From Candidatus Roizmanbacteria bacterium (lineage in GTDB: Bacteria > Patescibacteriota > Microgenomatia > UBA1406 > HO2-37-13b): DNA of 64,000 bases. Location of the stretch: the NCBI GenBank assembly GCA_038127095.1, contig JAYPGZ010000001.1, positions 72,205-136,204 on the forward strand, given 5' to 3'. Positions 8,708 through 41,111 of this stretch are shown piece after piece. The translations under genes were made by a program, and so were the position numbers. Numbering within the stretch: position 1 is the stretch's first letter; every line of letters starts with the position of its first letter. The notes below the pieces were generated by a model. That model was not told the origin of the DNA. It was given only the letters and a program-made list of their open reading frames with translations, and ran no database searches.

Positions 8708-8743
8708 TGTCAAGCGTAAATGAGTAAAAACTGAAGCTAAAAT

Positions 8744-9013: not shown

Positions 9014-9018
9014 GACAT

Positions 9019-11911: not shown

Positions 11912-11942
11912 TACAATCACTTGCATTTTAACAGACAATTTG

Positions 11943-12770: not shown

Positions 12771-12904
12771 CCCCTTTTTGTAAATAAACTTGGGGCTGCA
12801 ATGGACGCGGTTGAAAGTATGTCTTGGGTCGTGAAGTCAACCACCGCTAAAGCCAATATAAGTATAACAGGATGCATAGATTATAACAACAGCGTGTTAT
12901 AAAC

Positions 12905-15083: not shown

Positions 15084-15123
15084 GATTGAAGTATACTACA
15101 AGAGAAGAGTCTTTTAGAAAATA

Positions 15124-15894: not shown

Positions 15895-15937
15895 GATTTT
15901 ATCCTTAGTTTTTAGCTAAACGCAAATTTCAATTAAA

Positions 15938-20827: not shown

Positions 20828-20836
20828 TTTAATTAA

Positions 20837-23797
20837 TTAAATGATCTGCCACCTTATAGTAAACAGCGGTTCTAGTTTAGATTGCTGGGTCAATCGAGAT
20901 TCAACTGTCTCAAGCAACTTCTCTTTCTTTAATTCTACATCATCCTGTGTTTCAAATAATCTCTTCCTCATCTCATTCCTCTTCTTCTCCCAATCTTTGA
21001 TTTCGCGTTGAGCAATCAATTTTTCATCAAGATTTAATATTTTTTTTGCATTTGTTTTTGCAGTTTTTATATCAATATCAAGTTTCCTTAAATCGAGTTC
21101 CAATGCCTTTTTAACATCCTCAGCCCAGTTGTCCAACTTATCTACTTCATGATCAAAAAAGCTACCATTACGTTCAGCAATCTGACTAGTTGTAATCTTT
21201 AGATATTTATTCTCCAGTTCATCGATTTCTGTTTTTAGTTTTGGTGAGATAGCATATTGTCCTCCGATTGTAGCTGACAATTGAAATATCTTCTTAATAA
21301 CCTCTGGTTCAAGTACATCACCATCATCAGTTATAGCTGAAAACAGAATATGATCTTCTGACTCAAATGACTCAACTGTCAAGTTTGAGATTTTCAGAAT
21401 GCCCCCTTTACCTATGAGTGGCTGTAATACAGTAATAATTGTTTGGTTGTTAGAGTAGTTAAAAGCTACTTCTGCTTCATCTGACGGTCGAGATTTAATG
21501 TCATTCAATATCCTTTGAGCTAATGAATGAGCGGGTCTATACACATGTGCGTCCTCAATATTTTTTCCAATCTTATATGGGCCCGGATCAATATTCTCGC
21601 CTTCAAAAGGGTTTCGTTTGAGAACAAAAGAATATTCATTGTCTGAAAAATCAGCATTGTCTCCCAAATAGAATTTAGTTGTATCCCACAACCATCTATT
21701 ATAAGTATCTAAATACATGGCGCTTTCTCTTAAGTTGATTTTAAGTTTTTCGTGAACTTCAGCATCGAAGTTTTCGAGAAGTGTCTGCCGTGTATCTGAA
21801 AGATTATTCTTAATACTCTCATCCATTTCCTCTTGAAGGGCATCAAACGCATTATTGATTTCTTCAGTTGTTCTACATTCTTGATATATGTTGGCTATGC
21901 GCTTTTCAAAATCTACTCCAGACTCAATTGTTCCCAATACCTCGTCACTTGCACCAAAAACCCCTTTGAAAAGTTTGAATTTTTGATCAAGCAGATCATA
22001 AACCCTGCTATCAGCAGCATTTTTTCGGTTTACAAAGTTTATAACCACAACATCATGTTTTTGACCATATCGATGGCATCTACCAATACGTTGCTCGATA
22101 CGTTGTGGATTCCACGGCAAGTCATAGTTAATAACTAAAGAGCAGAATTGTAGATTTACCCCTTCAGCCGCAGCTTCAGTTGCGATCATAATTTCAGCTT
22201 CATCTCGAAAATACTCAATGAGTGCGGATCGCATATCAGCAGTTTTTGAACCTGTAATTTTGTCTGTATCCTTATTTTCCTCTAACCATTTAGCGTAGAT
22301 CTCCTTTGATTTAGGATCATTATTTGAACCATTGAAAAGTACAATTTTGCCTTTATAGCCATTCTCCGGCAACAGTGTTTCAAATAGGTACTTCTGTGTA
22401 ATAGTTGACTCAGTGAAAATGATTGCTTTCTGTTTAGCTCCCAATTCATGAGTCATCTCAAACCCCTTTTTAAGCGCAATAAGTAGCGCATCGCCCTTTG
22501 AATTGTTGAAGATTGCCTTGGCGAGGTCTCTAAATTTTTTAAGATCAACTTTCTCCTTTTCCATCAATTGAATATCTTCTTTAGTAAATTCTTTAGTTTT
22601 CTTCCCTTTTTCTTCATTTTCATCCTCATCTTCCTCATCATCAATCCACTCATCCGATATTTCATCAAAACCTTCAAAGTTCTGAGCCAAATCTGTGGTA
22701 TCGAATTCATTTTGAGTACTTTTTAAGGATATTTTAGCTTCATCTATGAGATAGCCCAACTTGATAACAAGATTATTTAATGTGCTTGCAATAGCAAAGG
22801 ATGAAGAGGCTAACAACTTGCGCAGTATTAGTGTCATTAGTTGACGCTGGCTAGAAGGTAGCGCATAGAGCGTTGGCCTTTGTAGGTATTCGGACATCCC
22901 ATCGTATAGCTCTACTTCCTGTTTTGTAGGTGTGTAATCCTGAGTGATGGGGCGTCTCTCGGTGTAATTGATATATTCTAAAACTTGCCTACGCAGGGTT
23001 CGGATACATACTACTTCTAAACGTTTTCTAAGGTCTAAAAACATTTCCTGTTTTGGCTCAACAAGTCCGACTTCATTTTCGTAAATATCTTGTTCACGTG
23101 AAACTCGAGCGTAGTTTGCCTTAAAACTTCTAAGGTCCCCAAAAACATGATCATCAATAATGCTTACCAGACCATATAATTCCAATAAAGAGTTCTGCAG
23201 TGGGGTAGCAGTAAGTAATATTTTTGGGACACCAGCAAGAGATTCCTTAATATCTCTAGCAATCTTATTACTTGTTTTATAAACATTTCGAAGTCTGTGT
23301 GCCTCATCAATAACTGCTAGGTCCCATTTTGTTTGCTTAACATATGGCGCCTTAGTTCTGGCAAAGTGATATGAACAGATTACAATCTTATCGTCTTGAT
23401 TAAAGGGATTAAGATTGCCATCTTTAATACTTTGATTAAATGATTTTGTCTCAAGAATTAAGGATGGCAAAAAAAACTTTTCCTGCAACTCAGTATTCCA
23501 CTGTTTACGCAAAGCAGCTGGTACAATGAGTAATATATTTCTCTTTCTTTCAGCCCATTTTTGAGACAATACCAACCCAGCCTCGATTGTTTTGCCCAAA
23601 CCTACTTCATCAGCAAGTATGGCTCCCCTGGAAAGAGGCGATTTAAATGCAAATAGCGCAGCTTCTATTTGGTGAGGATTGAGATCAACTTGAGCATTTG
23701 ATAGTGTTGAAGAAAGCTTTTCTAGACTATCGGATGAACACCGTTTTGTCAGCTCATAGGCAAAATATTTTGCATGATATGGAGTAATTTTTGTCAT
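20837..23797 (-). CDS. SNF2-family (Rad54/Swi2-like) helicase with ~400-aa uncharacterised C-terminal region
   Basis: ILADEVGLGKTIEAG (motif I), VIDEAHRLRN (DEAH box), ...LLTATPLQN, QRIGRCHRYGQ (motif VI); an acidic E/D stretch separates the two RecA lobes. Confidence 0.8.
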   Translation of the reverse strand: MTKITPYHAKYFAYELTKRCSSDSLEKLSSTLSNAQVDLNPHQIEAALFAFKSPLSRGAILADEVGLGKTIEAGLVLSQKWAERKRNILLIVPAALRKQWNTELQEKFFLPSLILETKSFNQSIKDGNLNPFNQDDKIVICSYHFARTKAPYVKQTKWDLAVIDEAHRLRNVYKTSNKIARDIKESLAGVPKILLTATPLQNSLLELYGLVSIIDDHVFGDLRSFKANYARVSREQDIYENEVGLVEPKQEMFLDLRKRLEVVCIRTLRRQVLEYINYTERRPITQDYTPTKQEVELYDGMSEYLQRPTLYALPSSQRQLMTLILRKLLASSSFAIASTLNNLVIKLGYLIDEAKISLKSTQNEFDTTDLAQNFEGFDEISDEWIDDEEDEDENEEKGKKTKEFTKEDIQLMEKEKVDLKKFRDLAKAIFNNSKGDALLIALKKGFEMTHELGAKQKAIIFTESTITQKYLFETLLPENGYKGKIVLFNGSNNDPKSKEIYAKWLEENKDTDKITGSKTADMRSALIEYFRDEAEIMIATEAAAEGVNLQFCSLVINYDLPWNPQRIEQRIGRCHRYGQKHDVVVINFVNRKNAADSRVYDLLDQKFKLFKGVFGASDEVLGTIESGVDFEKRIANIYQECRTTEEINNAFDALQEEMDESIKNNLSDTRQTLLENFDAEVHEKLKINLRESAMYLDTYNRWLWDTTKFYLGDNADFSDNEYSFVLKRNPFEGENIDPGPYKIGKNIEDAHVYRPAHSLAQRILNDIKSRPSDEAEVAFNYSNNQTIITVLQPLIGKGGILKISNLTVESFESEDHILFSAITDDGDVLEPEVIKKIFQLSATIGGQYAISPKLKTEIDELENKYLKITTSQIAERNGSFFDHEVDKLDNWAEDVKKALELDLRKLDIDIKTAKTNAKKILNLDEKLIAQREIKDWEKKRNEMRKRLFETQDDVELKKEKLLETVESRLTQQSKLEPLFTIRWQII

Positions 23798-25097: not shown

Positions 25098-25871
25098 ATG
25101 ATACATACAAACATAACTAACAAACAAAAAGAAATACTTCTTCTTCTCTACCGATTCCGGTTTCTCAACAGACAGCACATACAAACACTCCTTCGTCATA
25201 AAAACAAAAAGAATATAAACACGTGGCTCAAAGATCTCACAGAAAAAGGATACATAAACAGAATATTCAAACGATCATGGACAGAAAACTCAGTACCGGC
25301 AAAATACTACATCGCACTCAATGGCATACGATATCTTAAAACCAATCCAGACTGTAAAAAAGAATATCTTCGTAAGCTTTATCGTGAAAAGGACCGCTCA
25401 CAAAAATTTATCGATAAATGTCTCTTTATTGCAGACATTTACATTCGGTTTTTGAAAGACTCTGTGGAAAATATCACCCATTATCAATTTTCCACACAAT
25501 CTGACTACACGCCCGGCAGCATCGTAACCGACATCATGCCCGATTTTCTGGTCATTACAGGAAACAACAATGTAAAACAATACCATCTCTTCCAGCTATT
25601 TCCTGAGGGAACGCCCCGTTTTGCAGTTCGCAAGCGTATTGAGCAATATATGACATTTTTAACTGAGGAAGACGGCACGCACTTAAATGCTGTTCTTCAC
25701 CTTGTGGCACATACTGAGGCATTATATGTATATTTAACTCGCCACACTGAAAGAATCCTTGAGGATGAGAGTATATCGGTACCAATTCGAGTACTATCGT
25801 ATGATCAGATCGCACAGCACGGATTACAGCTTGAAGACCCGGAAACAACTGATGAGTCAGAACTCGAGTAG
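25098..25871 (+). CDS. replication-relaxation (Replic_Relax-like) winged-helix protein
   Basis: N-terminus LTNKQKEILLLLYRFRFLNRQHIQTLL... resembles Replic_Relax family proteins of conjugative/mobilisable elements; assignment by pattern only. Confidence 0.45.
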   Translation: MIHTNITNKQKEILLLLYRFRFLNRQHIQTLLRHKNKKNINTWLKDLTEKGYINRIFKRSWTENSVPAKYYIALNGIRYLKTNPDCKKEYLRKLYREKDRSQKFIDKCLFIADIYIRFLKDSVENITHYQFSTQSDYTPGSIVTDIMPDFLVITGNNNVKQYHLFQLFPEGTPRFAVRKRIEQYMTFLTEEDGTHLNAVLHLVAHTEALYVYLTRHTERILEDESISVPIRVLSYDQIAQHGLQLEDPETTDESELE

Positions 25872-25877: not shown

Positions 25878-26294
25878 CTACATCAGCCCTTTCTCCTTCA
25901 TGCTTATATATGTACCCTTCGCATAAATAATATGGTCGATAACCTTTATACCCAATATATTTCCGGCATCAATCATCCGTCTGGTTGAGGCAACGTCTTC
26001 TGAGGACGGATTAGGATCACCAGAGGGGTGATTGTGGGCGAGAATAATCTGCGATGTGCATTCTCTCACTGCTCGAACAAACACTTCCCGCGGATGAACC
26101 AGTGACGCATTGAGTATTCCTATACTTACCAGCTCAAACGTTGTAATATTACTCCGTGCATCAAGATGAATTACAAAAAAATGTTCTTTATGACGATCAA
26201 TACCGTCTTGTGTCTTAAAAAACCTATCAAGCAAATTATAGAGCCCTTTCGAATTACTTATTTTTTTCATTGACTCACTGACTTTTATTTTCAT
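25878..26294 (-). CDS. radC: RadC-like JAB/MPN domain protein
   Basis: ILAHNHPSGDPNPSSEDV is the RadC/JAMM signature (HxHPSG...PS..D). Confidence 0.7.
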   Translation of the reverse strand: MKIKVSESMKKISNSKGLYNLLDRFFKTQDGIDRHKEHFFVIHLDARSNITTFELVSIGILNASLVHPREVFVRAVRECTSQIILAHNHPSGDPNPSSEDVASTRRMIDAGNILGIKVIDHIIYAKGTYISMKEKGLM

Positions 26295-26367: not shown

Positions 26368-26661
26368 TCATCTTTTGGGCAACTCAGACAACCGACATGG
26401 TGTAAAGTACCTATCTCGTTCAACCGGCAGTCCCAATGCGCCTCGTACTGTACTGATCTCTGAAAGCGAAAAATACCCAAGTTCCCGTTCAAACCCATCG
26501 ACCAGGCCGTAAAATGTGTCATTACCATCAAATTCAACGACATACCACGTCCAGCTTGAGTCTGGTGTAAAAAACTTACACCATACCATCGGATCTTCAG
26601 TATTCTCACTTGCATACAACTTCGGCAGCTTGCTGCGGATATCTGCAGTCAATAGCATCAT
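26368..26661 (-). CDS. DUF2958-like protein (common on conjugative elements)
   Basis: FFTPDSSWTWYVVEFDGNDTFYGLVDGFERELGYFSLSEI; strong RBS GGAGGTGGGG 3 nt before the Met-Met start, so the start is moved from the ORF-track 26724. Confidence 0.5.
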   Translation of the reverse strand: MMLLTADIRSKLPKLYASENTEDPMVWCKFFTPDSSWTWYVVEFDGNDTFYGLVDGFERELGYFSLSEISTVRGALGLPVERDRYFTPCRLSELPKR

Positions 26662-26909
26662 AAACCCCACCTCCTTTCGATATGAAAATTGATAAATCAG
26701 GTCAGGTATGCTCCTGTCCTTCAAAAAAGGGGCATGGGGTGAAGACGTAGGCTGTCAAAAGTTTCGCAAGAAAGGATTGTAATGCCTGTCAGAAAAATGA
26801 TGACATCAATAATGAACAGTCATTATTGTCATTTTTCTACAGGTTTACATACCCGCCTTTTGACAGATGCGGCAAACCCCATAAAATAGGAAAGAAAGGA
26901 CAGGAGAGA

Positions 26910-27555: not shown

Positions 27556-28608
27556 ATGCCTATAACTGTGAACAATTCAACATATAAAACGCTTATCAGC
27601 ACTGATAATATATTTAAGGCATGGTATGCCTTTCGGAAAGGAAAGCGAAAAAAGCCCGATGTAATGTTCTTTGAGCGCCATCTTGAAGATAATTTGTTTG
27701 CACTGCAGGATGATCTGGAGAAGGGTCAGTACCGCCATTCGGGATATCTTGAATTTACGGTACAGGATCCTAAAAGTCGACTCATTCACAAACCACATGT
27801 CAGAGACAGGGTTGTTCACCAGCTTCTGTATGAATATCTCTATAAACTTTATGACAAAACTTTTATCTACGACTCATATTCATGCAGAATTGGTAAGGGA
27901 ACGCATAAGGGTGTCGGAAGGCTTATTCAGTTTAGTATAAAAGAATCGCAAAACTATTCACGTAGCTGCTGGAGTGTAAAATGCGATATAAAGAAGTTTT
28001 TTGCAAACATTGATCATAAAGTCCTTCATGATATTCTCGTACGTAAAGTACATGATCCACTTATACTTTTTCTGCTTGATATCGTTATTGACAGCTTCCA
28101 TACGAAAGATGCCCTTGGCAAAGGCCTCCCATTAGGAAACCTCACCAGTCAGATATTTGCAAATATTTACATGAATGAATTTGACCAGTTCATAAAACAT
28201 AAGCTTAAGGTTATATATTTCATTCATTATGCCGATGACTTTATCCTGGTTTCACATAACAGAGTATATCTTGAACAGCAAATTGAGCCAATGAGAACAT
28301 TTCTGAAAGATACCCTAAAATTAACTATGCACCCTGACAAAGTTATCTTTAGAAAACTCGACTGGGGTATTGATTTTTTAGGGTATATTGTGCTTCCCCG
28401 GTATGTTTTACCCAGAACTGCAACAAAGCATCGCATATTCAGAAAAATAAAGAAACGTGCAGATGAGTATCTCGATGGTGATATTTCCATGTATCAGCTG
28501 AGACAGTCGGTACAGTCATACCTTGGATATCTGTCACATACTGACGGATATAAGCTTTCACTGGAAATTAAAAATTACGTCTGGTTTCTGACGGGCGAAT
28601 CAGTATAA
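27556..28608 (+). CDS. diversity-generating retroelement (DGR) reverse transcriptase
   Basis: RT motifs 1-7 including FIHYADDFIL (YxDD) and the DGR-specific LGNLTSQ variant in motif 4 (LPLGNLTSQIFANIYM). Length (350 aa) and the adjacent Avd/TR/VR support the call. Confidence 0.85.
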   Translation: MPITVNNSTYKTLISTDNIFKAWYAFRKGKRKKPDVMFFERHLEDNLFALQDDLEKGQYRHSGYLEFTVQDPKSRLIHKPHVRDRVVHQLLYEYLYKLYDKTFIYDSYSCRIGKGTHKGVGRLIQFSIKESQNYSRSCWSVKCDIKKFFANIDHKVLHDILVRKVHDPLILFLLDIVIDSFHTKDALGKGLPLGNLTSQIFANIYMNEFDQFIKHKLKVIYFIHYADDFILVSHNRVYLEQQIEPMRTFLKDTLKLTMHPDKVIFRKLDWGIDFLGYIVLPRYVLPRTATKHRIFRKIKKRADEYLDGDISMYQLRQSVQSYLGYLSHTDGYKLSLEIKNYVWFLTGESV

Positions 28609-28967
28609 TGAATGGCACTATGTTTCAGCTTGATATTCCGCTTCTTGACAAATTATATGCGTTTTATAAAGAAATCACAGTTGTTATTGTTTCCTTCCCA
28701 AAATCACGTAAATATACACTCGGAGAGCATATTGAAAGACTGACCCTTGAGATTATTGAACTTGTCATATCTGCCGGATATAAACCAAAGGAGGAGAAGC
28801 TGGAGACCGTTTATGAGATCAGTGCAAAGCTTGATGTTTTGAAAATGCTGGTTCGCCTAGCTTATGAGACAAAATGTATGCAGAGCAAGGATTACCAGTG
28901 CCTGTCAGCTGATCTTTCAGAGACCGGCAAAATGACAGGCGGCTGGATCAAATCCTTAAAACAGTAA
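28608..28967 (+). CDS. avd: Avd-like four-helix-bundle accessory variability determinant
   Basis: 119 aa; FPKSRKYTLGEHIERLTLEIIELVISA matches the FPK..K..L..Q..R...SI pattern of Avd / four-helix-bundle (23S rRNA-IVS protein) family; start overlaps the RT stop by 1 nt. Confidence 0.7.
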   Translation: MNGTMFQLDIPLLDKLYAFYKEITVVIVSFPKSRKYTLGEHIERLTLEIIELVISAGYKPKEEKLETVYEISAKLDVLKMLVRLAYETKCMQSKDYQCLSADLSETGKMTGGWIKSLKQ

Positions 28968-28977: not shown

Positions 28978-29089
28978 TCAGGGGACGGAAACCGGTATTG
29001 TCATTGTGATTGGACGCATTGTTCCAATTGACGTTCGACAAACCACCATTATCGGAATTACCACCGATGAGACGGCTATCGGAACCGAA
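28978..29089 (-). repeat. DGR template repeat (TR), sense on minus strand
   Basis: 112 nt identical to 29472..29583 except at 21 positions, all of which are T on the plus strand (A on the minus-sense TR). Non-coding: lies between avd and the target gene's 3' end. Confidence 0.85.
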
Positions 29090-29455
29090 CCAACGTGCTT
29101 CTCTCCTATTCCGACTCACTGTGCCCAGATTACTCCACAACACTGTATTTTATACGTTTTATCTTTTTATGAAATAAAACTAACAGAGAAGCACACACAG
29201 CTTTCCTTCCTGTTTATATTCCCGCCGGCATATTTACGCTTCTTTTCCCACATAAGAGAACAGAACTCTGAAAGTGATGCCGGGAGAAAGCAGAGCAGCC
29301 GGCAGGCGTACCTGACCGGATAGTGGCTTTGCTAAGGTCAATTGTAGCAGATAATATTCGGAAATCTCAAAAAATTTTTTGGCTTCGCCAAAATCCAAGA
29401 ATCCAATACACAAAACACCAATACAAGAACCAAGATAATCAAGAGTACAAGGATT

Positions 29456-32017
29456 TTAGGAAGAGAAAACTATCAGGGGACGGAAACCGGCATAGTCAAA
29501 GTGAGTGGACGCAAAGTTCCAATGGACGTTCGACAAACCACCATAAGCGGAAAAACCACCGATGAGACGGCCATCGGAACCGAATTGATCATGCATCCAT
29601 TCATATGTACTTGTTTCACCCCATTCCGGATGATCTCTATTGCCTAGTATGTTGAATTCGATCTCACGCATATTACGCGCCTGTACATGTTCCGGTAGTT
29701 CAAGTAAACGCTGGAGGGCAGGGTAGAAATGCTCATATTGTTCATTTGGGGATATCTTTGCACGGGAATTGGCAGCTGCGTTTGGGCCAATACCCTGAGC
29801 TCTCAGATCTTCGAGAATGGATGCCCATGGGTCATTGGCGTAAACCTGACTACCGTTGTAGTTTCCGTTACTATCTTGTGCGGCGTTTGGTTTTGCGGTT
29901 ATATCAACTACCGCCCAGAACCCGCCAAGTTTTGCTGCATCCTGAGCAAGTTTTTTATTCGGACCAATCTCATTCCAGAAGTATGTATCATTCGGCGTCT
30001 TTATCCATCCTGGATAATCATCATCTTTCTTAAATTCTCTTTGGGGAAAGTAAACAGGTTTAAGGTGATCTCTTATGCCAAGTTCCTCTGCTTTTGCAAG
30101 AGCATCAAGAAGTTCCTGTGGAGGAGGAGGTACTTCTATTTCCTGTCCCAGAAACTCCCTCCATTTGTATGATTCCGCTTCCCGAAGTTCATGTTCCTGT
30201 AATGAATCTGCTGTGCGTTCACTTCTTCCCTGCATTGGGTTTGAAGTAGCCTGCGTTTCGCCTGCAGCCATTTCTGACGGTAGGATATAGCCTTTTTCTT
30301 GTTCTTCAATCTCAACCTGTATTTGGGGAGATACAGCATCCCTTGTTAAACCAAATGAATGAAGCACTTCCAGCAATGTTTTTCGCTCCTCAGGAACACT
30401 GAGCGTTTTAGGGTCGTTAATGAATTCGCCTAGTTTTTTCTGCATGTACGTTGCAAAATCATCACCCCTCGCGCGGGATAATTTCCATTCACCAAAGAGT
30501 TTAAACAATGTTCCCGGATCAAGAAAATTTGTATTAAGTGTTGTTTCTGTATTGTTTTGAGGGTCAATTCCAAGTGATGTTTTCATCGCTGGAGTAAAAC
30601 CAGCGAAATCACGATTATGTATCTGCTGCATCATTTGAGCCGCTTCAGACAATCTTCTAATATAATCAGCTTCAGCTTTACTCAGCCCCAGTACTCCATT
30701 TTCTTCAATCAATGTGGCCTTGATAACATCAGCCATTTCTGCGGCCGGCATATAACTAACCTCTACTCCTGTAAGCTCCCGTAAAATCGCCGGATCCATA
30801 TCTTCCCGCTGTTTTGTTCGCTCATCTTTAGGATTACCAGTCAAGATTTCGACGAAATTATTTGTGACATCAAAAACCTGTCCATTAAATCCTGGGATTT
30901 GAATTCTATCCCCTGGCCGTGCCCCTTGCATAAATTTTGTAGCAAGCTGCGTTCTGGTTGATCCTCCCGTATATTCATCGTGTAATACTCCGACTCCTCT
31001 TTCCAAAGCCTTTGGTACAGGTCCGGTCTTCATGCCACTTTGAACTCCTCCTTCATCATCAGTCCAAAGCTCACGATATCCAAACACATCTCGAGGAGTG
31101 GTTCCTTCATGCCAATTGATAATCTCATACCCTCCCGTCAGTGAATTTAACACATACAGACCCAGCTTGGTTTTCCCTGTACCAGTTGAGCCGACAAGAA
31201 AAATTTTGTTTCCTGCAATTGCTTCACGCGACATGCGGTCAATTAATTCTAAACGGGAAGGAGTCAGCACAACACCGTTTTCTTCGAGTTGTTTTTTATA
31301 ATCTAGCATCCTTTGCGCTTCAAGATAACCCAAGGTTGAGGGAGAGGCAGTTTCAACAATGCCAGATCGCTTTGCTTTTAGTTCGTCCAGTTTTCCTTGG
31401 AAAAGACCAATTTGATCAGCAGCACTTTGTGTCAGCGTGCCATGTTGTTGAGTGCTGTCTAAATATCTTCTATAAATTGCAAGTCGTAGTTTCTCTGTTA
31501 CCCGGTCAATATCCCGTACCTCTCTCATAGGACGACGCGCTGCCTGAAAGTGGGCAAACTCCCTGTCAAATTCTGATTCAAAACGCTCGCGTACTTGCGG
31601 TTGAGATAGAAGATCAGACAACTTTAGTCCTATTACGTCCCTATGTAAAGCAGAACTCGGAGCTTCTTCGTTTGTTGCATCGGGCGTGCCATCATGCGCA
31701 TCCCATGATCTTACGTTATTAGGTAGTAATAAATTGTCAAGTTGTCTCTCCAAACTATTCAGATCATCTCCTTCCTCAAGCTGTATGTCTGGTACGACGT
31801 GATCCGGAGTACGATAATATTCCTCAAGATATCCTAACACTGAAAAGCATTTATCCTGAACATCTGCTGGAGATAATTCTGTTGAGGCAGTAGCACTTGC
31901 TTCGTTTGGTATAAACCTGCGAAAAGAAAGAGGTGCAAGACGATGGCGTGCATGTGTGATTTGTTGTACGGAAAATGCTTCTGTTCCTGTTGGTTCGGAC
32001 ATAATCGTATTATACAA
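29456..32017 (-). CDS. DGR target protein: MoxR-like AAA+ ATPase with C-terminal lectin-like (FGE/CLec-fold) variable domain
   Basis: Walker A FLVGSTGTGKTKLG, Walker B VGVLHDEYTG; C-terminal ...WxW...GFRPL containing the VR; no signal peptide or TM helices. Confidence 0.75.
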   Translation of the reverse strand: MYNTIMSEPTGTEAFSVQQITHARHRLAPLSFRRFIPNEASATASTELSPADVQDKCFSVLGYLEEYYRTPDHVVPDIQLEEGDDLNSLERQLDNLLLPNNVRSWDAHDGTPDATNEEAPSSALHRDVIGLKLSDLLSQPQVRERFESEFDREFAHFQAARRPMREVRDIDRVTEKLRLAIYRRYLDSTQQHGTLTQSAADQIGLFQGKLDELKAKRSGIVETASPSTLGYLEAQRMLDYKKQLEENGVVLTPSRLELIDRMSREAIAGNKIFLVGSTGTGKTKLGLYVLNSLTGGYEIINWHEGTTPRDVFGYRELWTDDEGGVQSGMKTGPVPKALERGVGVLHDEYTGGSTRTQLATKFMQGARPGDRIQIPGFNGQVFDVTNNFVEILTGNPKDERTKQREDMDPAILRELTGVEVSYMPAAEMADVIKATLIEENGVLGLSKAEADYIRRLSEAAQMMQQIHNRDFAGFTPAMKTSLGIDPQNNTETTLNTNFLDPGTLFKLFGEWKLSRARGDDFATYMQKKLGEFINDPKTLSVPEERKTLLEVLHSFGLTRDAVSPQIQVEIEEQEKGYILPSEMAAGETQATSNPMQGRSERTADSLQEHELREAESYKWREFLGQEIEVPPPPQELLDALAKAEELGIRDHLKPVYFPQREFKKDDDYPGWIKTPNDTYFWNEIGPNKKLAQDAAKLGGFWAVVDITAKPNAAQDSNGNYNGSQVYANDPWASILEDLRAQGIGPNAAANSRAKISPNEQYEHFYPALQRLLELPEHVQARNMREIEFNILGNRDHPEWGETSTYEWMHDQFGSDGRLIGGFSAYGGLSNVHWNFASTHFDYAGFRPLIVFSS
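29472..29583 (-). repeat. DGR variable repeat (VR) encoding the last ~37 aa of the target protein
   Basis: Direct alignment with TR; every mismatch corresponds to a TR adenine (minus sense), e.g. AAY(N) to TTY(F)/TAY(Y)/CAY(H)/ACY(T), GAY(D) to GCY(A). Confidence 0.85.
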
Positions 32018-32021
32018 AATT

Positions 32022-34676
32022 TTATAATTTCGATAAATGCTTCATTAGTAATTTATGTCGTACAAGCGTTGCCTGCCGAACGTCATCAATGACAACGGCA
32101 GCATCCGGATCGGCAGGGTCATGACAGACAACTTTAATATCTTGAGCAGCGCTTCCAAATCCAATACCCTGAACAATAATTCCTGCAGCTCGTAATTCTC
32201 CAATTAAAGCAACGCACTCCGCTTGGTTTGTTACATCTCCGTCTGAAACAATAGTCAAAACCTTAGAATGTCCGCCTGCCCTAATTTTCTGAACTGTCTG
32301 TGGATCAAGCGCGTCACGATATTGCTGTAATGATGCCTGTAGCCCTCGTGATGATTGGTTGTGAGCTTTTAATGTACCGTCAAGCTGTACAAGGCCTTTC
32401 TCGGATATTTCACCTGTTGATTCCTGAGCAACACTTGTCCAGTCACCAAATACAGCGACTCTTGAACGGACTGAAAGAGGGGTCGTCATATGTCTTTTAT
32501 ATCGTGAATGTCCTAACCGTTCGTTTAGATTTTTAATGTTGTATTCACTACTTAACACCATCTTTCGCTGTTCCTCAGCTGGCTGACCACTCATTGATCC
32601 CGAAATATCTAAGATAAAGTCATCTTCAAAAACAGAAACTTCAATTCGCTCTCTTTGTCTTTCATGTGATTTTTGGTACCCTGATGGATCATCCTCCTGT
32701 GAACGAACGTCAATATATGCAGTTACGGGATCGTCTAAAAATTCACCTTCACTTTGCCTGACGGGTCCTTTATATGCTGCATGGGGAATTTCTCTCCGCC
32801 TATAGAGAAGCTCAAATAAATCACGCCATTCCTGGTATAACGTACTTGGCCTATGACTAATACTTGCTTCGGCAGGAACTGGAGTCCGATTTACTCCATT
32901 TATCCATGATTCCAGTTGATTCCATTCACGCAATGACACACCTTTTTCCTGTTGGAATGCCTCAGCCGCACGTTGCTCCTGAGTTTGTGTAGGTAAAGCA
33001 GCTCCATCATCCTGCTTAGTTAGTTCTTCATACAGCAGTTCTATTTCTTCCTGACTTAATTCGGGTTGCTCAACCGTTGATTCTCCAAAATCACCATCAA
33101 GGGGTTGCGACTCCTCAGCTTGATCCGGTGATTCATCCTGCGCCTTTGGTGGAGTTGCATCCATACCACGATGAGTCCATTTTTTTGCATGAGGATCCCA
33201 TATCTCTCCCCATGCATGCTTATCCACACCTGGTGCTTCTACTACGGTAAACTCGAATCGAGGATCTTTACTATTAATATATGGCCCTGTTGCAATTCGA
33301 GAAGCAATTCCAAGTCTTTTACACAACTCGTCTCGGAAAATATTTGCCCAATAACAATGAGCAACACCTGTTTCAGCAATTTTTGTCCATATATCGTCTC
33401 CTGCGGACAAATATAACGAGTCTATCTGTCCTATTTCCGCTTCATCAGCCGGATAACGGAGTTTCTTACGAACATAGAGGACAACTTCCCGCGCTTTTTG
33501 AACATCATTCATCCAGTTTTGACCGGATAGTTCATCAAGAAATAATTGTGTTTCTGGATCTACATTTCCGCCTACTGGAGTCAAGTCATCTTCTGTGGGT
33601 GGCATGTCCAACTTATTTGATTGGGTTTTAGCTAAAACAAAGTCAAATGAAAATTGTCCTGTTGGTGCTGTTTGTACTTGTGTTTGTCTTGGGTCAAGAT
33701 ACACGATTCCTAAGTCATCACGCATAAGCTGGAATGCTCCTGGGGGATTAAGGGTTGAAGCAATAGGGAGTGTGCCATAGGGCAGTTTGATAAGAGTTTC
33801 ATCACCTGGCTGAATAGTTCCCTCATATGTCCTTCTTGTTTTCCAGATAGCTTCATCTTCGGGAACATCATCTATATCCCATGTTTGTTTGGTGCCAGCT
33901 TCTTTGACAATCTGGCGGGTAACAGGATCATAACGACAAACTTGCTCACGGTAATACCCTCCATAAAATGGCGTGACACGAACAGTGATATCCGATTCCT
34001 GCAGCGGTTCTTTGTCTCCGGCCACATCCTGTGTTTGAGATGGTCGATATTCAAATTGCTTTGATTGACCGGTCTGTCGGTCGGCAGCAGTAAGCTCATC
34101 AATAATTGGTTGAATATGAGTTGTAAAATTCTGACCGTCAAACCTTAAATATCGTCCTGAGGCAATATAATCAATTAAACTACGTCCCTTCGTGCGAGGG
34201 ATATCTGTTATTGCTTTGCGAACCGGATCTGAAACTGTATCGGGATATTTACCGGTTAGTATATATGTATCGAGTGCCCATTGGAATTCCTGAGCAAGTG
34301 TTTGATTTTGAGGAGTAATTGGCTTATCGCGAAGAATATCAGGATTACTTTCTCTCAGTCTTGCCAGTCCTTGCCATCTGAGGACTGGCTCACTTGCTTC
34401 TGGATACCTGCGGGCGGATTCTATTAAGAGGTTTGCATTAGTACGTAGAGCCTGTGTGAGTCCGATATGTCCGGCAACTTGTCGTACTATTGCAATGCGG
34501 GCCTGATCGATATTTGGAAACAATGCTGTATTAACAGAAAGTTCTGAACGATCATCAGACCAGGCAATTCGTATTCCAGTATCTCGAGTTTTTACCGCAA
34601 TACCGCCAAGTAATTCACTTGGTTCAGAAGGTGGAGCAGTAGTTTCTGTAATATCTGCAGTTGGTTGCTCTGCCAT
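32022..34676 (-). CDS. transglutaminase-like cysteine-protease-fold plus von Willebrand factor A (vWA) domain protein
   Basis: GVAHCYWANIFRDELCKRLGIASRIATGPY...HAWGEIW (transglutaminase-like Cys/His core) and C-terminal DISGSMSG (MIDAS DxSxS)...VLTIVSDGD; 4-nt gap to the downstream AAA gene. Confidence 0.7.
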   Translation of the reverse strand: MAEQPTADITETTAPPSEPSELLGGIAVKTRDTGIRIAWSDDRSELSVNTALFPNIDQARIAIVRQVAGHIGLTQALRTNANLLIESARRYPEASEPVLRWQGLARLRESNPDILRDKPITPQNQTLAQEFQWALDTYILTGKYPDTVSDPVRKAITDIPRTKGRSLIDYIASGRYLRFDGQNFTTHIQPIIDELTAADRQTGQSKQFEYRPSQTQDVAGDKEPLQESDITVRVTPFYGGYYREQVCRYDPVTRQIVKEAGTKQTWDIDDVPEDEAIWKTRRTYEGTIQPGDETLIKLPYGTLPIASTLNPPGAFQLMRDDLGIVYLDPRQTQVQTAPTGQFSFDFVLAKTQSNKLDMPPTEDDLTPVGGNVDPETQLFLDELSGQNWMNDVQKAREVVLYVRKKLRYPADEAEIGQIDSLYLSAGDDIWTKIAETGVAHCYWANIFRDELCKRLGIASRIATGPYINSKDPRFEFTVVEAPGVDKHAWGEIWDPHAKKWTHRGMDATPPKAQDESPDQAEESQPLDGDFGESTVEQPELSQEEIELLYEELTKQDDGAALPTQTQEQRAAEAFQQEKGVSLREWNQLESWINGVNRTPVPAEASISHRPSTLYQEWRDLFELLYRRREIPHAAYKGPVRQSEGEFLDDPVTAYIDVRSQEDDPSGYQKSHERQRERIEVSVFEDDFILDISGSMSGQPAEEQRKMVLSSEYNIKNLNERLGHSRYKRHMTTPLSVRSRVAVFGDWTSVAQESTGEISEKGLVQLDGTLKAHNQSSRGLQASLQQYRDALDPQTVQKIRAGGHSKVLTIVSDGDVTNQAECVALIGELRAAGIIVQGIGFGSAAQDIKVVCHDPADPDAAVVIDDVRQATLVRHKLLMKHLSKL

Positions 34677-34839
34677 ATGTTTATTATATATTGTTTAGTT
34701 CATCTTAAAAGTGTGTGATTTTTACCACCTTAAACTTAATTAATTATATTTATAGTATATAACCTTATAGTCAATGAAATTATTTGTCTTAACCTATCAC
34801 AACAATATATTATCGGATTATAACAAAACCTATATAATA

Positions 34840-34868
34840 TTGACAACGACATTTGAATAGTGTATACT
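34840..34868 (+). promoter_or_regulatory. near-consensus sigma70-type promoter (TTGACA, 17 nt spacer, TATACT)
   Basis: Read directly: ttgacaacgacatttgaatagtgtatact about 40 nt upstream of the pilin-like gene. Confidence 0.4.
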
Positions 34869-35213: not shown

Positions 35214-36224
35214 ATGAAGTTTATCTATACACTTCTCATTCTTTCAATATTTCTTTTTAACACGTCTTCCGTTCTTGCCCAAAACTCTCCAACACCCACG
35301 TCAAAACCTCAAGTTCAATATACAAACGAATTTACCGTTGAAAATCAGCCCTCTGGGGTTGTGACATTGCTGCAGGATTTCATAAAAGGTTTTGATTCCT
35401 TTGTCGGAGGATTTGTCTTTTATACCCCAAATCCCCTTGATAAAACGATTACCTTACAAGATAAATCAGAAATACCCGGAGTTACTAAATACCGCGATAT
35501 GTTCTATCAGATTGCCATACCCGTACTTGCTATTATTATTGCGGCTATTGCCGTTTCAAAGCTTGGATCGGATAATACCCAAGAGCTCAAAAACTTTGCC
35601 GTACGGTTTGTCATAACCATCGTCTTATTCATCACCGTACCCCACGCCCTCTCATACAGCATACAAGCAAATAACTTACTCGTTGAGAAAATATCAACGA
35701 CACAAAAGTTCACGGGCTTTTTAGATGACTACTTTACCAAAACCCAAGAAAAGATTAATCAAGGTGAAAGCGCAGAGCAATATGGTATTCCGTCATTTGA
35801 TATATCGCTTATCGGAGGCATTTTCAAATCCTTTGGTAAATTCATCGTTCAGATATTTCTTTTTATCTTAACCTTCTTGTTTCTTCTTATGGGTTTCTTG
35901 TACTTAGGTTTCCAATTTGTTATCCGTTTTGCTGCACTTTTGTTTCTAGGTGTATTGTATCCAATCATCATTCCCTTTATGTTGTCTGAGAAAACACAGC
36001 CGATTGTACAAACATTTTTCAAATCGTGGCTCACGTTCCTGATCCAACAACCAGCCTTTGTTCTGGGCTTTGCGATTGCTACTGATATCTTTACGAGCAT
36101 TCTCCAGTCAAAAGGCCCGAGTGTAGGCATGCTTTTCTTCTATACCGGCTTCTTATTTTTCCTCGGCGGCGTGAATATCTTGGTCTCCCGCATCTTCGGG
36201 GGGCTGGACGGGCGAGACTCTTGA
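35214..36224 (+). CDS. VirB6/TrbL-like polytopic membrane protein
   Basis: Signal peptide (…SSVLAQNSP), soluble region, then ≥5 TM helices in the C-terminal half; position next to the pilin gene. Confidence 0.4.
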   Translation: MKFIYTLLILSIFLFNTSSVLAQNSPTPTSKPQVQYTNEFTVENQPSGVVTLLQDFIKGFDSFVGGFVFYTPNPLDKTITLQDKSEIPGVTKYRDMFYQIAIPVLAIIIAAIAVSKLGSDNTQELKNFAVRFVITIVLFITVPHALSYSIQANNLLVEKISTTQKFTGFLDDYFTKTQEKINQGESAEQYGIPSFDISLIGGIFKSFGKFIVQIFLFILTFLFLLMGFLYLGFQFVIRFAALLFLGVLYPIIIPFMLSEKTQPIVQTFFKSWLTFLIQQPAFVLGFAIATDIFTSILQSKGPSVGMLFFYTGFLFFLGGVNILVSRIFGGLDGRDS

Positions 36225-37403: not shown

Positions 37404-38213
37404 ATGAAAAGTGTGCGGATATATAAAGACAATATTCGAGAACATGTATTGCGAAGTCTATTTTTTACCGATACCGCAATTGCTATCGGCGGAGCGATTG
37501 TGATTGCTGCCGTCGTATTTGTCATATTCAAATATTTCCTGCATTTCTTTGATTGGGGATATTATGGATTGACGGTTCTTACCTGCGAAGTGTTTTTCAT
37601 TGGACTGGTTACGCAAAAGCTTGATAATCAGCCTATCTACAAGATTGTGCCACGGGGATTGAAACATTCGGTAAGCAAAAAGAATTTACGCCATGCTGAT
37701 ATTGATTCATACTTCACTGACTTTGCAATTCAAGACAATCTGATTGTCCGCAAAAACAGTATTATCTCGATGCTTGCGGTTGAGCCGTATGACATTGCAC
37801 TCCTTAATGATCAAGACCGAGAACATTTCTTTGTCAAAATCAAGCAAATGATCCATGTCTTGCCCTCAGGAGTCCAGTTTATTATCAGAAAAGAAAGAGC
37901 AACGATGGAAGAATATTCAAAGCATGTGTCTTCCTTATACAAAGATGCCAACACTAAACGAGAACCACTGATTCACAATTACTTAAAAGATCTATCAGAT
38001 CTCATCAGTAACCACTCATTTGTCACCATGCGCCACTACGCGGTGTTTTCCGTCAGTTGTGACAGCAAAAAGGCCAATGAAAAGGTAAAAGCAATCAAGA
38101 AGTTATCAGATATGAGTATTCGATTTGCCTCGGCATTGTCTGCCTGCAATATTACGGCTACACCACTTACAAACAATGAACTGTTACACGTTGCAACCAC
38201 CACCCTACGATGA
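37404..38213 (+). CDS. membrane protein, possibly VirB3-like / VirB4 N-terminal-like partner
   Basis: Two N-terminal TM helices; 4-nt overlap with the VirB4-like ATPase gene. Confidence 0.4.
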   Translation: MKSVRIYKDNIREHVLRSLFFTDTAIAIGGAIVIAAVVFVIFKYFLHFFDWGYYGLTVLTCEVFFIGLVTQKLDNQPIYKIVPRGLKHSVSKKNLRHADIDSYFTDFAIQDNLIVRKNSIISMLAVEPYDIALLNDQDREHFFVKIKQMIHVLPSGVQFIIRKERATMEEYSKHVSSLYKDANTKREPLIHNYLKDLSDLISNHSFVTMRHYAVFSVSCDSKKANEKVKAIKKLSDMSIRFASALSACNITATPLTNNELLHVATTTLR

Positions 38214-40366
38214 GAAAAACAACCAAAAAACAAACCAATGGGAAACATCCGAACAAGGTACTTATTACGCTGGATCGCTTTAATGTGAGTCGAAAGCTAA
38301 AAGAAGAAGTAGAGCTTTTAAGTATTGAAAAGGCAAAGAAGGTATATGAACTTAACAAAGTCCTGAAGGAATACAAACTTTATGAAAAGAAAAATACGGG
38401 ACTGCAAAAAATTGAGGAACATTTCTTTAATGGAGAACCAAAACTGCACCAAAATGCACTCACCCTGGCACTTCGGGAAGAAATTGGGCGACTCATGGAT
38501 ATTATCAAGTCACAACAGGAGATGATTGCCAAAGAATCATTTGTGCAGAATGAATTACCACAAATACGCAAGCCTGAGTTTGTTGCAAGCAACAATCCGA
38601 TCAAGCTACTTCGCAATTACCGAGCATATAAAAAAGAATTGCAAGAATATCATCAGGCTATCCATGAATCAAATATAACTGATTTTCATTTTGTCCTTGA
38701 AAAAGATGAAAAAGGATTAGTCATTGAGCGAGATGGAACCAAGAAATACAAAGCAGACTATTTACAGGAAAAAAGTTCTCATTTGCAAGTCGGTGAAAAA
38801 GTCAGGCGATTCTACTATTTAGCTGATATTCCCGCTTACTTAAGTCCCTATGTGTTTTTTAGACTGCTAACTTCCAGTTTACCGTTTACCTTAAGCGTCT
38901 TTGTACAACCAACACCGAGTGGTGAACTTTTGAAAAAAGCCAGACAAAGACTCTCTGTCTTGGAAATGCAGCAAAACGATCGGTTGAAAGCTGGAAAACT
39001 CAGAGATCAACAGATTGATAAAAATATCGAGGAGGTTATGTCCTTTATTGATGAACTTGTGCATGAAGCCGAGAAAGGGATTGTGTATTCATTGTATTTA
39101 CAGCTTGAAGCTGACAGTGAAAAAAAACTCGCTGCGCTTCATAAGCAACTCCAAAACGTAACAAGTGCGATGGATATTACATTTAATCAATATACCTTCG
39201 GTCACAAGAGAGCATTCAAGAATTTCTTACCCTTTAATCAAGATCATGTCAAAGAAAATAGGATTTTGCAGTCAACGGCAGCTTCATACTTGATGCCGTT
39301 TGTGTCAAAACAGTTAAATGATCACAATGGTATTTTTATGGGTGTGAATGCATACAATAATAGCTTGGTGTTTATTGATCCATTTACCTCCCGAAACAAT
39401 AATATCAACATCTTTGGTGTCTCGGGGTCTGGTAAAAGTGTGACAGCTAAAACCTTGATGAACCGCCTCTATATGCGTGGTGTGCAAATCATTGTCATTG
39501 ATCCTGAAGGAGAATATATTGATCTTGCCAGATCTTTAGGAGGAGAAGTTATTCAATTTTCGAGAGAGAATGGGATTAACCCTTTTTATATCAATAGCTC
39601 TAATGAAAATGATATTTTAGATCATATCTCAACGCTTAAAACCTTCTTCAAATTCTTTATCCCCGAACACCACTACGATGGCGCACTTTTAGATGAAAAG
39701 CTCATTAAGCTCTATGACAGCTCATCGCCGTCATTTGAGAACTTACTGGAGCTTCTAGGTGATAGTCCCATGACACGAGATTTGAGTGTGTTATCAGATG
39801 GAAGTTTGCGGGGTGTATTTAACTCAACTCGACGACTTGAGCTCAATAACGACATCATTGTCCTTGATTTGCATGACCTGAAAAAAGATGAGAAACGAGA
39901 TCCTGCCATCTATCTTTTGACGTCGCTTATTTGGAACTTGGTTAATAAGGCAAATGGTAAGAAACGCATGCTCTTTATTGATGAAGCGCACAAGTTACTG
40001 GTTGATCCAGAGGTCGCTGTATTCTACCGAGAATTGGTCAAGCAGGCTCGTAAGCGCAATGTGGGAGTCGTGTCGATTACGCAGGATGTCGAAGACTTTT
40101 TGCATAATGAATATGGCAAAGCGATTATTACGAACTCTGAAACAAAAATTTTACTCAAGCAATCATATGCCACGCTTGATCAGATTGGCACGATTTACCC
40201 CATGACGGATGAGGAAAAACAGCAATTGGGACATTTGGAGATTGGAGAAGTAGTACTTTTCAGAGAAGGAGAACATATTCGACTCAATATCTTAGTATTA
40301 CAACATGAGCAAAACTTAGTATTTACCTCATTTAGTACTTCGCATGAGTCTGATCAGCAAAGTTAA
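38210..40366 (+). CDS. VirB4/TraC/TrbE-like conjugative ATPase
   Basis: Walker [27 protein letters not shown], Walker B KRMLFIDEAHKLL, C-terminal ...VSITQ. Confidence 0.75.
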   Translation: MRKTTKKQTNGKHPNKVLITLDRFNVSRKLKEEVELLSIEKAKKVYELNKVLKEYKLYEKKNTGLQKIEEHFFNGEPKLHQNALTLALREEIGRLMDIIKSQQEMIAKESFVQNELPQIRKPEFVASNNPIKLLRNYRAYKKELQEYHQAIHESNITDFHFVLEKDEKGLVIERDGTKKYKADYLQEKSSHLQVGEKVRRFYYLADIPAYLSPYVFFRLLTSSLPFTLSVFVQPTPSGELLKKARQRLSVLEMQQNDRLKAGKLRDQQIDKNIEEVMSFIDELVHEAEKGIVYSLYLQLEADSEKKLAALHKQLQNVTSAMDITFNQYTFGHKRAFKNFLPFNQDHVKENRILQSTAASYLMPFVSKQLNDHNGIFMGVNAYNNSLVFIDPFTSRNNNINIFGVSGSGKSVTAKTLMNRLYMRGVQIIVIDPEGEYIDLARSLGGEVIQFSRENGINPFYINSSNENDILDHISTLKTFFKFFIPEHHYDGALLDEKLIKLYDSSSPSFENLLELLGDSPMTRDLSVLSDGSLRGVFNSTRRLELNNDIIVLDLHDLKKDEKRDPAIYLLTSLIWNLVNKANGKKRMLFIDEAHKLLVDPEVAVFYRELVKQARKRNVGVVSITQDVEDFLHNEYGKAIITNSETKILLKQSYATLDQIGTIYPMTDEEKQQLGHLEIGEVVLFREGEHIRLNILVLQHEQNLVFTSFSTSHESDQQS

Positions 40367-41111
40367 GACGGCTCATGCGTTTAAAAATGATCCGTTTGGC
40401 TTTATAGCTGATCTGGTCATTACCGTTATTGCCAACCTCGTTATTCCCATTCCTTTAGCTGGAGAAGCCCTGAAAGCATTTAAAGGTCCCATCTTGTGGC
40501 TCCTTGGCTCATTCATCCTCCTTGGGATATTTATGCTGATTGTCATCGGAACCGTTGTCTTTTCTCCCGTGATTGTCAGTACTACCTTTTTTGATCGTAT
40601 TGCTACACTTGGAACTCCAGGTTCGCTTAATGTTTCATATGATGGCACATTTGCCGAGACCTCTATCCCATATCAAAATCCACTTGGTGGAACTGGCATG
40701 ACCTATACCTCAGTTACTGCATACTTTCATGACCCTGCCTACTTTCTGCAATTTGGCAGGATTCATAACGGAATAGATTTAGTTCCAACCGACACATATT
40801 ACAAAAATAGCAAAACATATCAGGAAGTACATCAAGTGATCGCGTTTTCAACTATTAATGGCAACGCACGATCATATATTGATGAGTTTGGATCACAAAC
40901 GGTGGAAGTTACGAATGATGATAGTACCTTACAAGCTGTCTTTATGCATTTTAAGCAGATATTAGTAAATGATGGAGAAATCAAGGCAGGAACACCACTA
41001 GGCGTTATGGGGAAAACAGGGCTCGCGACTGGAGAACACGTACATTATGAAATACGAGTTAAAAGTGGTTCAAACTGGACACCGGTTAACGCATTAAGTT
41101 ATATACAATAA
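40344..41111 (+). CDS. M23-family peptidase (peptidoglycan hydrolase, VirB1-analogous) with N-terminal TM anchor
   Basis: HNGIDL...FMHF...GEHVHYEIR signature of LytM/M23 metallopeptidases. Confidence 0.7.
   Translation: MSLISKVKTAHAFKNDPFGFIADLVITVIANLVIPIPLAGEALKAFKGPILWLLGSFILLGIFMLIVIGTVVFSPVIVSTTFFDRIATLGTPGSLNVSYDGTFAETSIPYQNPLGGTGMTYTSVTAYFHDPAYFLQFGRIHNGIDLVPTDTYYKNSKTYQEVHQVIAFSTINGNARSYIDEFGSQTVEVTNDDSTLQAVFMHFKQILVNDGEIKAGTPLGVMGKTGLATGEHVHYEIRVKSGSNWTPVNALSYIQ

Follow-up and report, generated by a model that had tools for sequence, protein, structure and literature searches.

A diversity-generating retroelement targeting a MoxR-class ATPase paired with a transglutaminase-like/vWA protein in a Candidatus Roizmanbacteria bacterium

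A stretch of DNA of a Candidatus Roizmanbacteria bacterium, spanning 64,000 nt (positions 72,205-136,204 of contig JAYPGZ010000001.1, assembly GCA_038127095.1; hereafter the window), was found to carry a diversity-generating retroelement (DGR) that rewrites, in an adenine-directed manner, 16 codons that encode the C-terminal tip of a soluble ATPase of the MoxR class. This target is always accompanied by a fixed partner containing a transglutaminase (TGase)-like domain and a domain of the von Willebrand factor A type (vWA) with a metal ion-dependent adhesion site (MIDAS), and the genetic coupling of the two proteins is strict. We regard the anatomy of this two-protein DGR cassette as practically certain. 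An earlier prediction, made from the sequence alone (the original prediction), had placed the two genes at 29456-34676; both long open reading frames (ORFs) are present on the minus strand and fill this region, with the TGase-vWA gene upstream and the ATPase gene downstream. Our analysis adds two points that the original prediction did not contain, i.e., the carriage of the cassette by a conjugative element, and the reading of the DGR template on the strand opposite to the reverse transcriptase gene.

Anatomy of the DGR cassette

The DGR comprises the following components: (i) a variable repeat (VR; 29473-29584, minus strand) covering codons 807-844 of the target gene; (ii) a template repeat (TR; 28978-29089, read on the strand of the target); (iii) a gene encoding an Avd protein of 119 aa (28608-28967, plus strand); and (iv) a gene encoding a DGR reverse transcriptase (RT) of 350 aa (27556-28608, plus strand). 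The Avd protein matches Pfam bAvd (E = 3e-20), NCBIfam DivGenRetAVD (E = 4e-25; 88 bits vs. a cut-off of 80) and the PHROG family "Avd protein of DGR". The RT matches RVT_1 (E = 7e-21) and phrog_1423 (E = 4e-108), and contains the motifs LGNLTSQ (aa 193) and YADD (aa 225).

The paired repeats, each of 112 nt, differ at 13 positions. All of these differences (13/13) are placed at adenines of the 28978-29089 copy, which was therefore recognized as the TR; the probability of such a distribution arising by chance is about (26/112)^13, i.e., ~6e-9. Since all 26 adenines of the TR (including those of nine AAY codons) occupy codon positions 1 or 2, no substitution of a TR adenine can yield a stop codon, and ~6e14 protein variants are accessible. 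No non-adenine difference separates the TR and VR sequences, which suggests that the DGR has been active recently. Neither a second VR nor a remote target was found in the window.

The RT gene overlaps the start of avd by 1 nt, and both genes constitute a tight operon that occupies the other strand than the TR and the target gene, and converges on the latter. This orientation of the RT is inverted in comparison with the TR-(avd)-RT layout of all related loci, and in such an arrangement a TR transcript would run antisense into avd. A hairpin (TTTTGGC-GAA-GCCAAAA, 7 bp, followed by a T-run; 29377-29393, minus strand) is placed 63 nt past the stop codon of the target gene and may be either a terminator or a DGR-associated target-recognition hairpin. 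It is directly followed by a promoter-like sequence (TTGAGA-18-TACAAT with TG; 29370-29341, minus strand), recognized by consensus match only and located ~250 nt upstream of the TR. Given the hairpin and this site (29341-29393), the TR may form a separate transcription unit. A candidate promoter of the two-gene operon, the best of the sigma-70-like sites (TTGTCA-18-TATAAT, with 11/12 consensus matches and a TG extension; 34817-34846, minus strand), likewise a consensus match only, was distinguished upstream of the TGase-vWA gene. The promoter and terminator scan revealed site counts in this region that were not above chance, and the statements on transcription units are tentative.

The target of the DGR is a protein of 848 aa (29456-32002, minus strand), composed of a helical region at the N-terminus (aa 1-245), an AAA+ module of the MoxR class (aa ~248-560; 30323-31261, minus strand) and a C-terminal region with the variable domain (aa ~600-848). 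Its likely start codon is the ATG at 32002, which gives a protein identical to the database protein P0001 and separates the gene from that of the partner by 19 nt, and not by the 4 nt originally reported. This codon was preferred over an alternative TTG start at 32017, because the 19-nt gap is closer to the gaps of 26-34 nt observed in homologous loci.

The ATPase matches Pfam AAA_5 (E = 5e-6), as do 43 of the 44 family members. It contains Walker A (GSTGTGKT; G271-T278, nt 31169-31192) and Walker B ((V)LHDE; D342/E343) motifs, a sensor-1 asparagine (N390) and the arginines R399 and R408. Residues G271-T278, H341/E343, N390 and R399/R408 vary little or not at all across the 44 homologues. In the AlphaFold2 model calculated from the alignment of these homologues (mean pLDDT 81.8), strands 308-314 and 320-326, located between helix segments 303-307 and 328-335, form a beta-hairpin inserted in helix 2 (aa 308-326), and a pre-sensor-1 hairpin (aa 366-378) is made up of strands 366-368 and 376-378, which precede the sensor-1 strand. 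Both hairpins are hallmarks of the MoxR-type clade of AAA+ proteins (PMC7159879). The closest structures are those of CbbQ and NorQ, the maturation ATPases of Rubisco and nitric oxide (NO) reductase, respectively. The best viral structural neighbors, found in BFVD, are phage MoxR-like and CobS ATPases, and ORF618 of Acidianus two-tailed virus (ATV) was also among the matches. Full-length profile searches against PDB sequences gave P-loop-level matches only. The original designation of the ATPase as MoxR-like, with Walker A and B motifs, holds structurally, as judged from the predicted model, though its sequence likeness to solved structures is only P-loop deep.

The C-terminal domain was examined by several approaches, none of which assigned it to a fold by sequence. 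The Pfam scan of the isolated domain gave no match even at E <= 10, and none of the 44 homologues matched FGE-sulfatase (0/44). The profile of the tail produced no match among PDB sequences, and its hhalign comparison with the Mtd protein of BPP-1 was not significant (probability 0.3%). Within a set of 5.8 billion proteins the same profile found only 12 relatives, all short and unannotated. The BFVD structure search with the ATPase yielded AAA+ matches only and no phage DGR target. In the predicted model, aa 752-846 are arranged as a helix, a strand, a helix and four strands, with a terminal GFR motif, which would be compatible with a C-type lectin (CLec) fold. Of the hypervariable lectin-like tail of the original prediction, the DGR-driven variability is upheld; the lectin fold could not be demonstrated by any sequence method.

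The variable domain of the window ATPase (29459-30205) shares 26-31% identity with the corresponding domains of other full-length members and 40-44% with short standalone proteins (P0087-P0092), whereas its N-terminal and AAA parts share up to ~60% identity with family members. This contrast indicates swapping of the VR-bearing domain.

The partner protein (884 aa; 32022-34676, minus strand) consists of an N-terminal beta/helical region, a beta-sandwich, a TGase-like core and, joined to it by a helical linker, a vWA domain at the C-terminus (aa ~680-884). The catalytic core (aa 389-502; 33171-33512, minus strand) matches Pfam Transglut_core (E = 4e-7), and its triad (Cys441, His487 and Asp506) is invariant in the alignment of 38 homologues. 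The vWA domain (32025-32618, minus strand) matches Pfam VWA over aa 687-844 (E = 6e-5), below the gathering score for the whole protein and with 23.7 bits vs. a cut-off of 23.8 for the isolated domain. Its MIDAS includes the DISGS motif (aa 690-694; nt 32595-32609), T732 and D812; D690-x-S692-x-S694, T732 and D812 are nearly invariant in the same alignment. The Cys-His core and the vWA domain with an intact MIDAS, both named in the original prediction, were therefore recovered by Pfam matches and residue conservation. In the predicted structure (pLDDT 81.3), the best structural match of the TGase domain is TgpA, and the vWA domain matches those of midasin (MIDAS domain), NorD and BchD. The Pfam scan found no DUF58 match in this protein; its vWA domain is of the canonical kind and shares one polypeptide with the TGase domain. 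The family is rare, as its profile finds 346 representatives among 1.84 billion proteins.

No signal-like N-terminus or hydrophobic segment was detected by a hydropathy heuristic in either window protein or in their 44 and 38 homologues, with one marginal exception, in agreement with the predicted lack of a signal peptide or a transmembrane (TM) segment.

The window encodes a second, unrelated TGase-like protein (611 aa; 50749-52584; Transglut_core E = 2e-16), which adjoins uvrA and uvrB outside the mobile element described below.

Distribution and genomic settings of the cassette

The set of 5.8 billion proteins yielded 44 relatives of the ATPase (33-62% identity) and 38 of the partner (40-78% identity). 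All named sources of these homologues are Patescibacteria (recorded as Patescibacteria, Pacebacteria or Paceibacterota), including a Pacebacteria metagenome-assembled genome from Rifle groundwater. One contig (CAZSWA010000002.1, shared by loci L006 and L001) is labeled "uncultured Gammaproteobacteria", yet it carries a Patescibacteria-type cassette with a partner of 73% identity; this probably reflects a binning or labeling error, or else a transfer.

In all loci recovered (12/12 of the first set, and additionally L015, L017, L018 and L019), the two genes lie side by side in the same orientation, so their co-occurrence in other genomes, which had been named as a check of the original prediction, is confirmed. 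Genes for Avd and RT are also present in ten independent loci (the window counted), and a TR with adenine-biased mismatches is located ~500 nt beyond the VR in the nine related loci having sequence downstream of the target gene. No third conserved gene was found across the related loci. A single-domain response regulator of 120 aa is encoded upstream of the pair in L001, L004 and L005, together with a histidine kinase in L001; it was considered as a core component and rejected, being absent from the window and from most loci (present in 3 of ~14). A small helix-turn-helix (HTH) gene recurs after the RT gene in L001, L003, L008, L013 and L017. Locus L003 contains, between the ATPase gene and the TR, a second VR-bearing target (319 aa; 10607-11584), and a single TR serves both targets.

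Two distant relatives of the pair are not associated with a DGR. L012 is located among housekeeping genes and its ATPase has a different C-terminal domain, devoid of the GFR motif. In L019 (45-7936), where no RT is encoded, the TGase-vWA (884 aa) and AAA (744 aa) proteins have on their flanks three standalone proteins (322, 309 and 333 aa), which are diverged paralogues of the domain at the C-terminus of the window ATPase, and the differences between these paralogues are not adenine-specific. This suggests that the C-terminal domain serves as a specificity module, whose diversity arises from hypermutation or, as in L019, from gene duplication. A DGR-less relative with three standalone variable-domain paralogues was not found reported in the literature searched.

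In the window, the cassette is carried by an element of ~37 kb (6688-43446) resembling integrative and conjugative elements (ICEs). It is bounded by two large serine recombinase genes (6688-8478 and 41998-43446, both on the minus strand) and encodes a type IV coupling protein (9365-11911), VirB6/TrbL (35214-36224), a VirB4/TraG-type ATPase (38210-40366), an M23 peptidase (40344-41111), a Replic_Relax protein (25098-25871), RadC (25878-26294) and a DUF2958 protein (26368-26724). The 3' end of the first recombinase ORF is shared with a predicted tRNA-Leu gene (6765-6849), a possible marker of the attachment site. Other cargo genes encode a trypsin-like peptidase (13560-15083), a ResIII helicase with a TnsA-like endonuclease domain (15938-18610), an N6/N4 DNA methylase (18579-20366) and an SNF2 helicase of 986 aa (20837-23797); this block (13560-23797) looks like a restriction-modification or defence module.

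The related loci occupy diverse positions. The cassette was found in a prophage between portal/minor-capsid genes and the major-capsid gene (L004), after the tail and lysis-like genes of a phage (L015; also IMG/VR contig L013), between terminase and serine integrase genes (L003 and L017), within a cluster of polysaccharide genes (L007) and next to HicAB genes in a heat-shock locus (L018). In L008 the whole cassette (8393-19366) is inserted between ftsZ and ftsA of a division/cell-wall cluster; the RT frame of this locus appears split (241 + 103 aa), possibly indicating a decaying copy. Directly downstream of the cassette in L015 (17329-22697), we observed genes for an XRE-type HTH protein, an EcoRI-type methylase, GmrSD/HNH, a PD-(D/E)XK nuclease and ThsB-TIR/ThsA-Macro (Thoeris-like).

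The GC content of the pair is 0.436 vs. 0.384 for the window, of which it is the highest-GC 5.2-kb stretch, as expected from the original prediction of an operon richer in GC than its surroundings. The pair has a GC content of 0.40-0.46 in 12 of 13 related loci (0.345 in L018), and that of the flanking sequences is 0.35-0.52. The varied settings together with the steady composition of the pair indicate an autonomous, horizontally transferred cassette.

Comparison with previously described systems

The main ingredients of the cassette have already been published, and the window system fits the published class of AAA-type DGR targets from candidate phyla radiation (CPR) bacteria, to which it was matched by description. 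Its novelty had been overstated in the original prediction, as both CPR targets of the AAA type (PMC10907252, PMC5758913) and DGR-diversified MoxR-vWA conflict systems (PMC7159879) are on record. CPR targets composed of an AAA ATPase fused to a C-terminal variable domain are credited to Paul et al. (2017) by Dore et al. (2024; PMC10907252), who raise the possibility of signal transduction by the ATPase from the C-terminal region. Wu et al. (2018; PMC5758913) described CPR targets in which UVR4 matches the AAA domain of Midasin (category g1), in architecture B3, i.e., TR-(avd)-RT, and noted a near absence of information on the phage association of CPR DGRs. The window system resembles these targets in phylum and in the possession of an AAA_5/midasin-type ATPase with a C-terminal VR, and the VR domain of the UVR4 targets is likewise unassignable to CLec by sequence. 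The B3 layout is that of the related loci, whereas the RT is inverted in the window (TR-(avd)-(RT)). The upstream TGase-vWA partner is unmentioned in the literature searched, and carriage by ICEs and prophages is a feature of the window family. Only the Kaur papers and a single unrelated genome report came up in full-text searches for DGR, transglutaminase and AAA in combination. Neither an obligate TGase-vWA partner within a system of two proteins (lacking VMAP and having the variable domain on the ATPase) nor ICE/prophage carriage of such a cassette was found reported in these searches, which did not extend to the text of Paul et al. (2017).

Kaur et al. (2020; PMC7159879) described MoxR-vWA-VMAP ternary systems, in which a DGR-diversified FGS/CLec domain is fused to the vWA component and TGase occurs only as a rare N-terminal domain of VMAP; they and Dore et al. 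(2024; PMC10907252) proposed DGR-diversified CLec sensors in MoxR-vWA conflict systems. The window cassette shares with the ternary systems a MoxR ATPase, a vWA protein, a peptidase-type effector and a DGR-diversified ligand domain, as well as a mostly cytoplasmic character, and its proposed logic is like the sensor-ATPase-effector logic suggested for them. It is composed of two proteins, however, with no VMAP (neither a Pfam VMAP match nor a third conserved gene), and the variable domain is located on the ATPase and not on the vWA protein, which places it outside the ternary class. In addition, the effector of the window system is a TGase-like domain N-terminal to vWA within the same protein, and its host belongs to the CPR, with an RT of CPR lineage, while the ternary systems occur in multicellular cyanobacteria, gammaproteobacteria and actinobacteria.

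The same three activities, with a MoxR ATPase combined with a co-factor of the vWA type and a Cys protease fold resembling TGase, are found in the widespread MoxR-DUF58-transglutaminase clusters (PMC12067865, PMC8430577), represented by MoxR(MRP)-DUF58-TgpA/TGM of bifidobacterial PFNA and mycobacterial moxR operons. These consist of three separate genes, including one for DUF58, and their TGase is membrane-embedded with an extracytoplasmic domain; in the window there are two fusion proteins, a vWA domain with a canonical MIDAS and no TM segment. The absence of DUF58 and of membrane segments excludes the window system from this class, and the clusters contain neither a DGR nor a variable domain.

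In its two-component design of a ring and a MIDAS adaptor, the window pair can be likened to CbbQ-CbbO and NorQ-NorD. These act on one fixed enzyme (Rubisco and NO reductase, respectively) and do not possess the long N-terminal helical region, the C-terminal variable domain, the TGase domain or the DGR, all of which are present in the window pair. With the DGR of Bordetella phage BPP-1 (mtd-avd-TR-brt) the window system shares Avd, an RT of the DGR type, TR-to-VR mutagenesis specific to adenines and a VR that forms the very C-terminus and ends in a GFR/GAR-type motif. The BPP-1 target is a tail-fibre receptor-binding protein, unlike the cytoplasmic ATPase of the window, and gene order and strand differ.

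Proposed mode of action and alternative explanations

We propose, and consider about evenly balanced between right and wrong, that the mobile cassette encodes a ring ATPase with variable tips and a docked TGase-vWA partner, which act together in inter-element conflict. By analogy with CbbQ and NorQ, the ATPase would form a hexameric ring displaying six copies of the variable ligand-binding domain. The partner would dock on this ring via its vWA/MIDAS, as CbbO, NorD and the MIDAS domain of midasin do, and the docked domain may couple ATP-driven movement to a bound polypeptide, as envisaged from CbbQ-CbbO, NorQ-NorD and midasin. The variable tips would capture a rapidly changing cytoplasmic protein ligand, and the ATP-driven remodeling would either activate the TGase-like domain or hand the ligand to it for cleavage or cross-linking. 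Defence or superinfection exclusion would be the most likely role, because the cassette rides a conjugative element and prophages, often beside restriction, Thoeris-like, Abi, Fic or HicAB genes, and the DGR would supply an anticipatory repertoire of recognition specificities. The intracellular sensor for anti-phage or host recognition that the original prediction put forward is plausible, and would fit the mobile-element and defence-gene neighborhoods.

Several points weigh against a role in conflict between elements. About half of the loci are located in ordinary chromosomal contexts without recognizable mobile or defence genes, and the PADLOC defence models gave no match to either window protein. 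The gene set MoxR-DUF58-TgpA/PFNA is generally seen as envelope- or chaperone-related and not as a defence system (PMC12067865, PMC8430577). The cytoplasmic location was judged by the hydropathy heuristic and not by SignalP or TMHMM, and the putative ligand-binding tail could not be assigned to the C-type lectin fold by sequence methods. Finally, the AAA-vWA interaction, the hexamer and the TGase activity are argued by analogy only, the support for a partnership of the two proteins being the strict adjacency of their genes, and the functional role of the cassette is argued from its context.

The nearest structures, CbbQ and NorQ for the ATPase and TgpA for the TGase domain (the latter from a family occurring in conserved MoxR-DUF58-TGase clusters; PMC12067865, PMC8430577), would also suit a housekeeping MoxR chaperone, in which the pair matures or remodels an endogenous complex, in the manner of CbbQO, NorQD, RavA-ViaA or MoxR-DUF58-TgpA, and the DGR tunes substrate or regulatory specificity. 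The DGR-less relative L012 among housekeeping genes, the response regulator beside the pair in L001, L004 and L005 and the histidine kinase in L001 point in the same direction. We nevertheless find this explanation unlikely: a fixed endogenous substrate would not need ~1e14 binding variants, the response regulator is confined to three of ~14 loci, the TGase-vWA family is rare, and the cassette is patchy, compositionally foreign to its flanks and frequently located on mobile elements. A surface or host-recognition device appears more unlikely still. Here, the variable domain would bind receptors of a host or recipient (in epibiont attachment, phage adsorption or mating-pair formation), and the pair would be associated with the virion, pilus or cell surface, freed by lysis or by non-classical export. 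Phages and conjugative elements, both of which carry the cassette, need variable surface recognition, and characterized DGR targets are mostly receptor-binding proteins. Moreover, the cassette directly follows a tail module in L015, and ATV, whose ORF618 was matched in BFVD, has a virion-associated MoxR ATPase with a vWA partner (p618/p892; cited in PMC7159879). Against this stand the requirement of the ATPase for cytoplasmic ATP, the lack of a signal peptide, TM segment or anchoring domain in all but one marginal case among the 82 homologues (by the same heuristic), and the many chromosomal loci without phage or type IV secretion system genes. The positions within phage genomes are also not syntenic (after lysis-like genes in L015, between portal/minor-capsid and major-capsid genes in L004, after terminase in L003 and L017), which fits an accessory "moron" better and led us to deem a virion structural protein unlikely.

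Carriage by an ICE, prophages and terminase/integrase elements would equally suit an offensive tool, by which a phage or ICE captures fast-evolving host defence or restriction proteins with the variable binder and inactivates them through ATP-driven unfolding and TGase-like cleavage or cross-linking. The window cassette lies beside anti-restriction-type cargo (RadC and DUF2958), and the architecture required is identical to that of a defence system, from which sequence alone cannot tell it apart. Several copies, however, are chromosomal with no element around them, and to our knowledge no anti-defence protein combines an ATPase-variable-domain protein with a TGase-vWA protein; we hold an offensive function to be slightly less likely than surface recognition. 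A bolder version of the conflict model, which we regard as doubtful, depicts the cassette as a self-contained, horizontally mobile "adaptive recognition" machine, acting at the protein level in ultra-small bacteria and their mobile elements, in which the DGR would continuously re-program the six tips of the MoxR ring, captured proteins of rival phages or plasmids or of the host defence would be passed to the tethered TGase-like protease or cross-linker, and L019 would use a germ-line array of paralogues instead of hypermutation.

DGRs are very abundant in the CPR, and AAA-variable-domain proteins are their commonest target. With the partner identified, the vague "variable ATPase" becomes a defined two-protein machine, for which binding of the adaptor to the ring, a TGase activity that depends on the ligand and altered susceptibility to phages or plasmids are predicted. 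The four-gene unit is found across conjugative elements, prophages and chromosomes, and L019, with its paralogue array, allows a natural comparison with specificity modules that are hypermutated. The idea of MoxR-vWA "conflict systems", derived from multicellular bacteria, would thereby be extended to minimal genomes and mobile elements.

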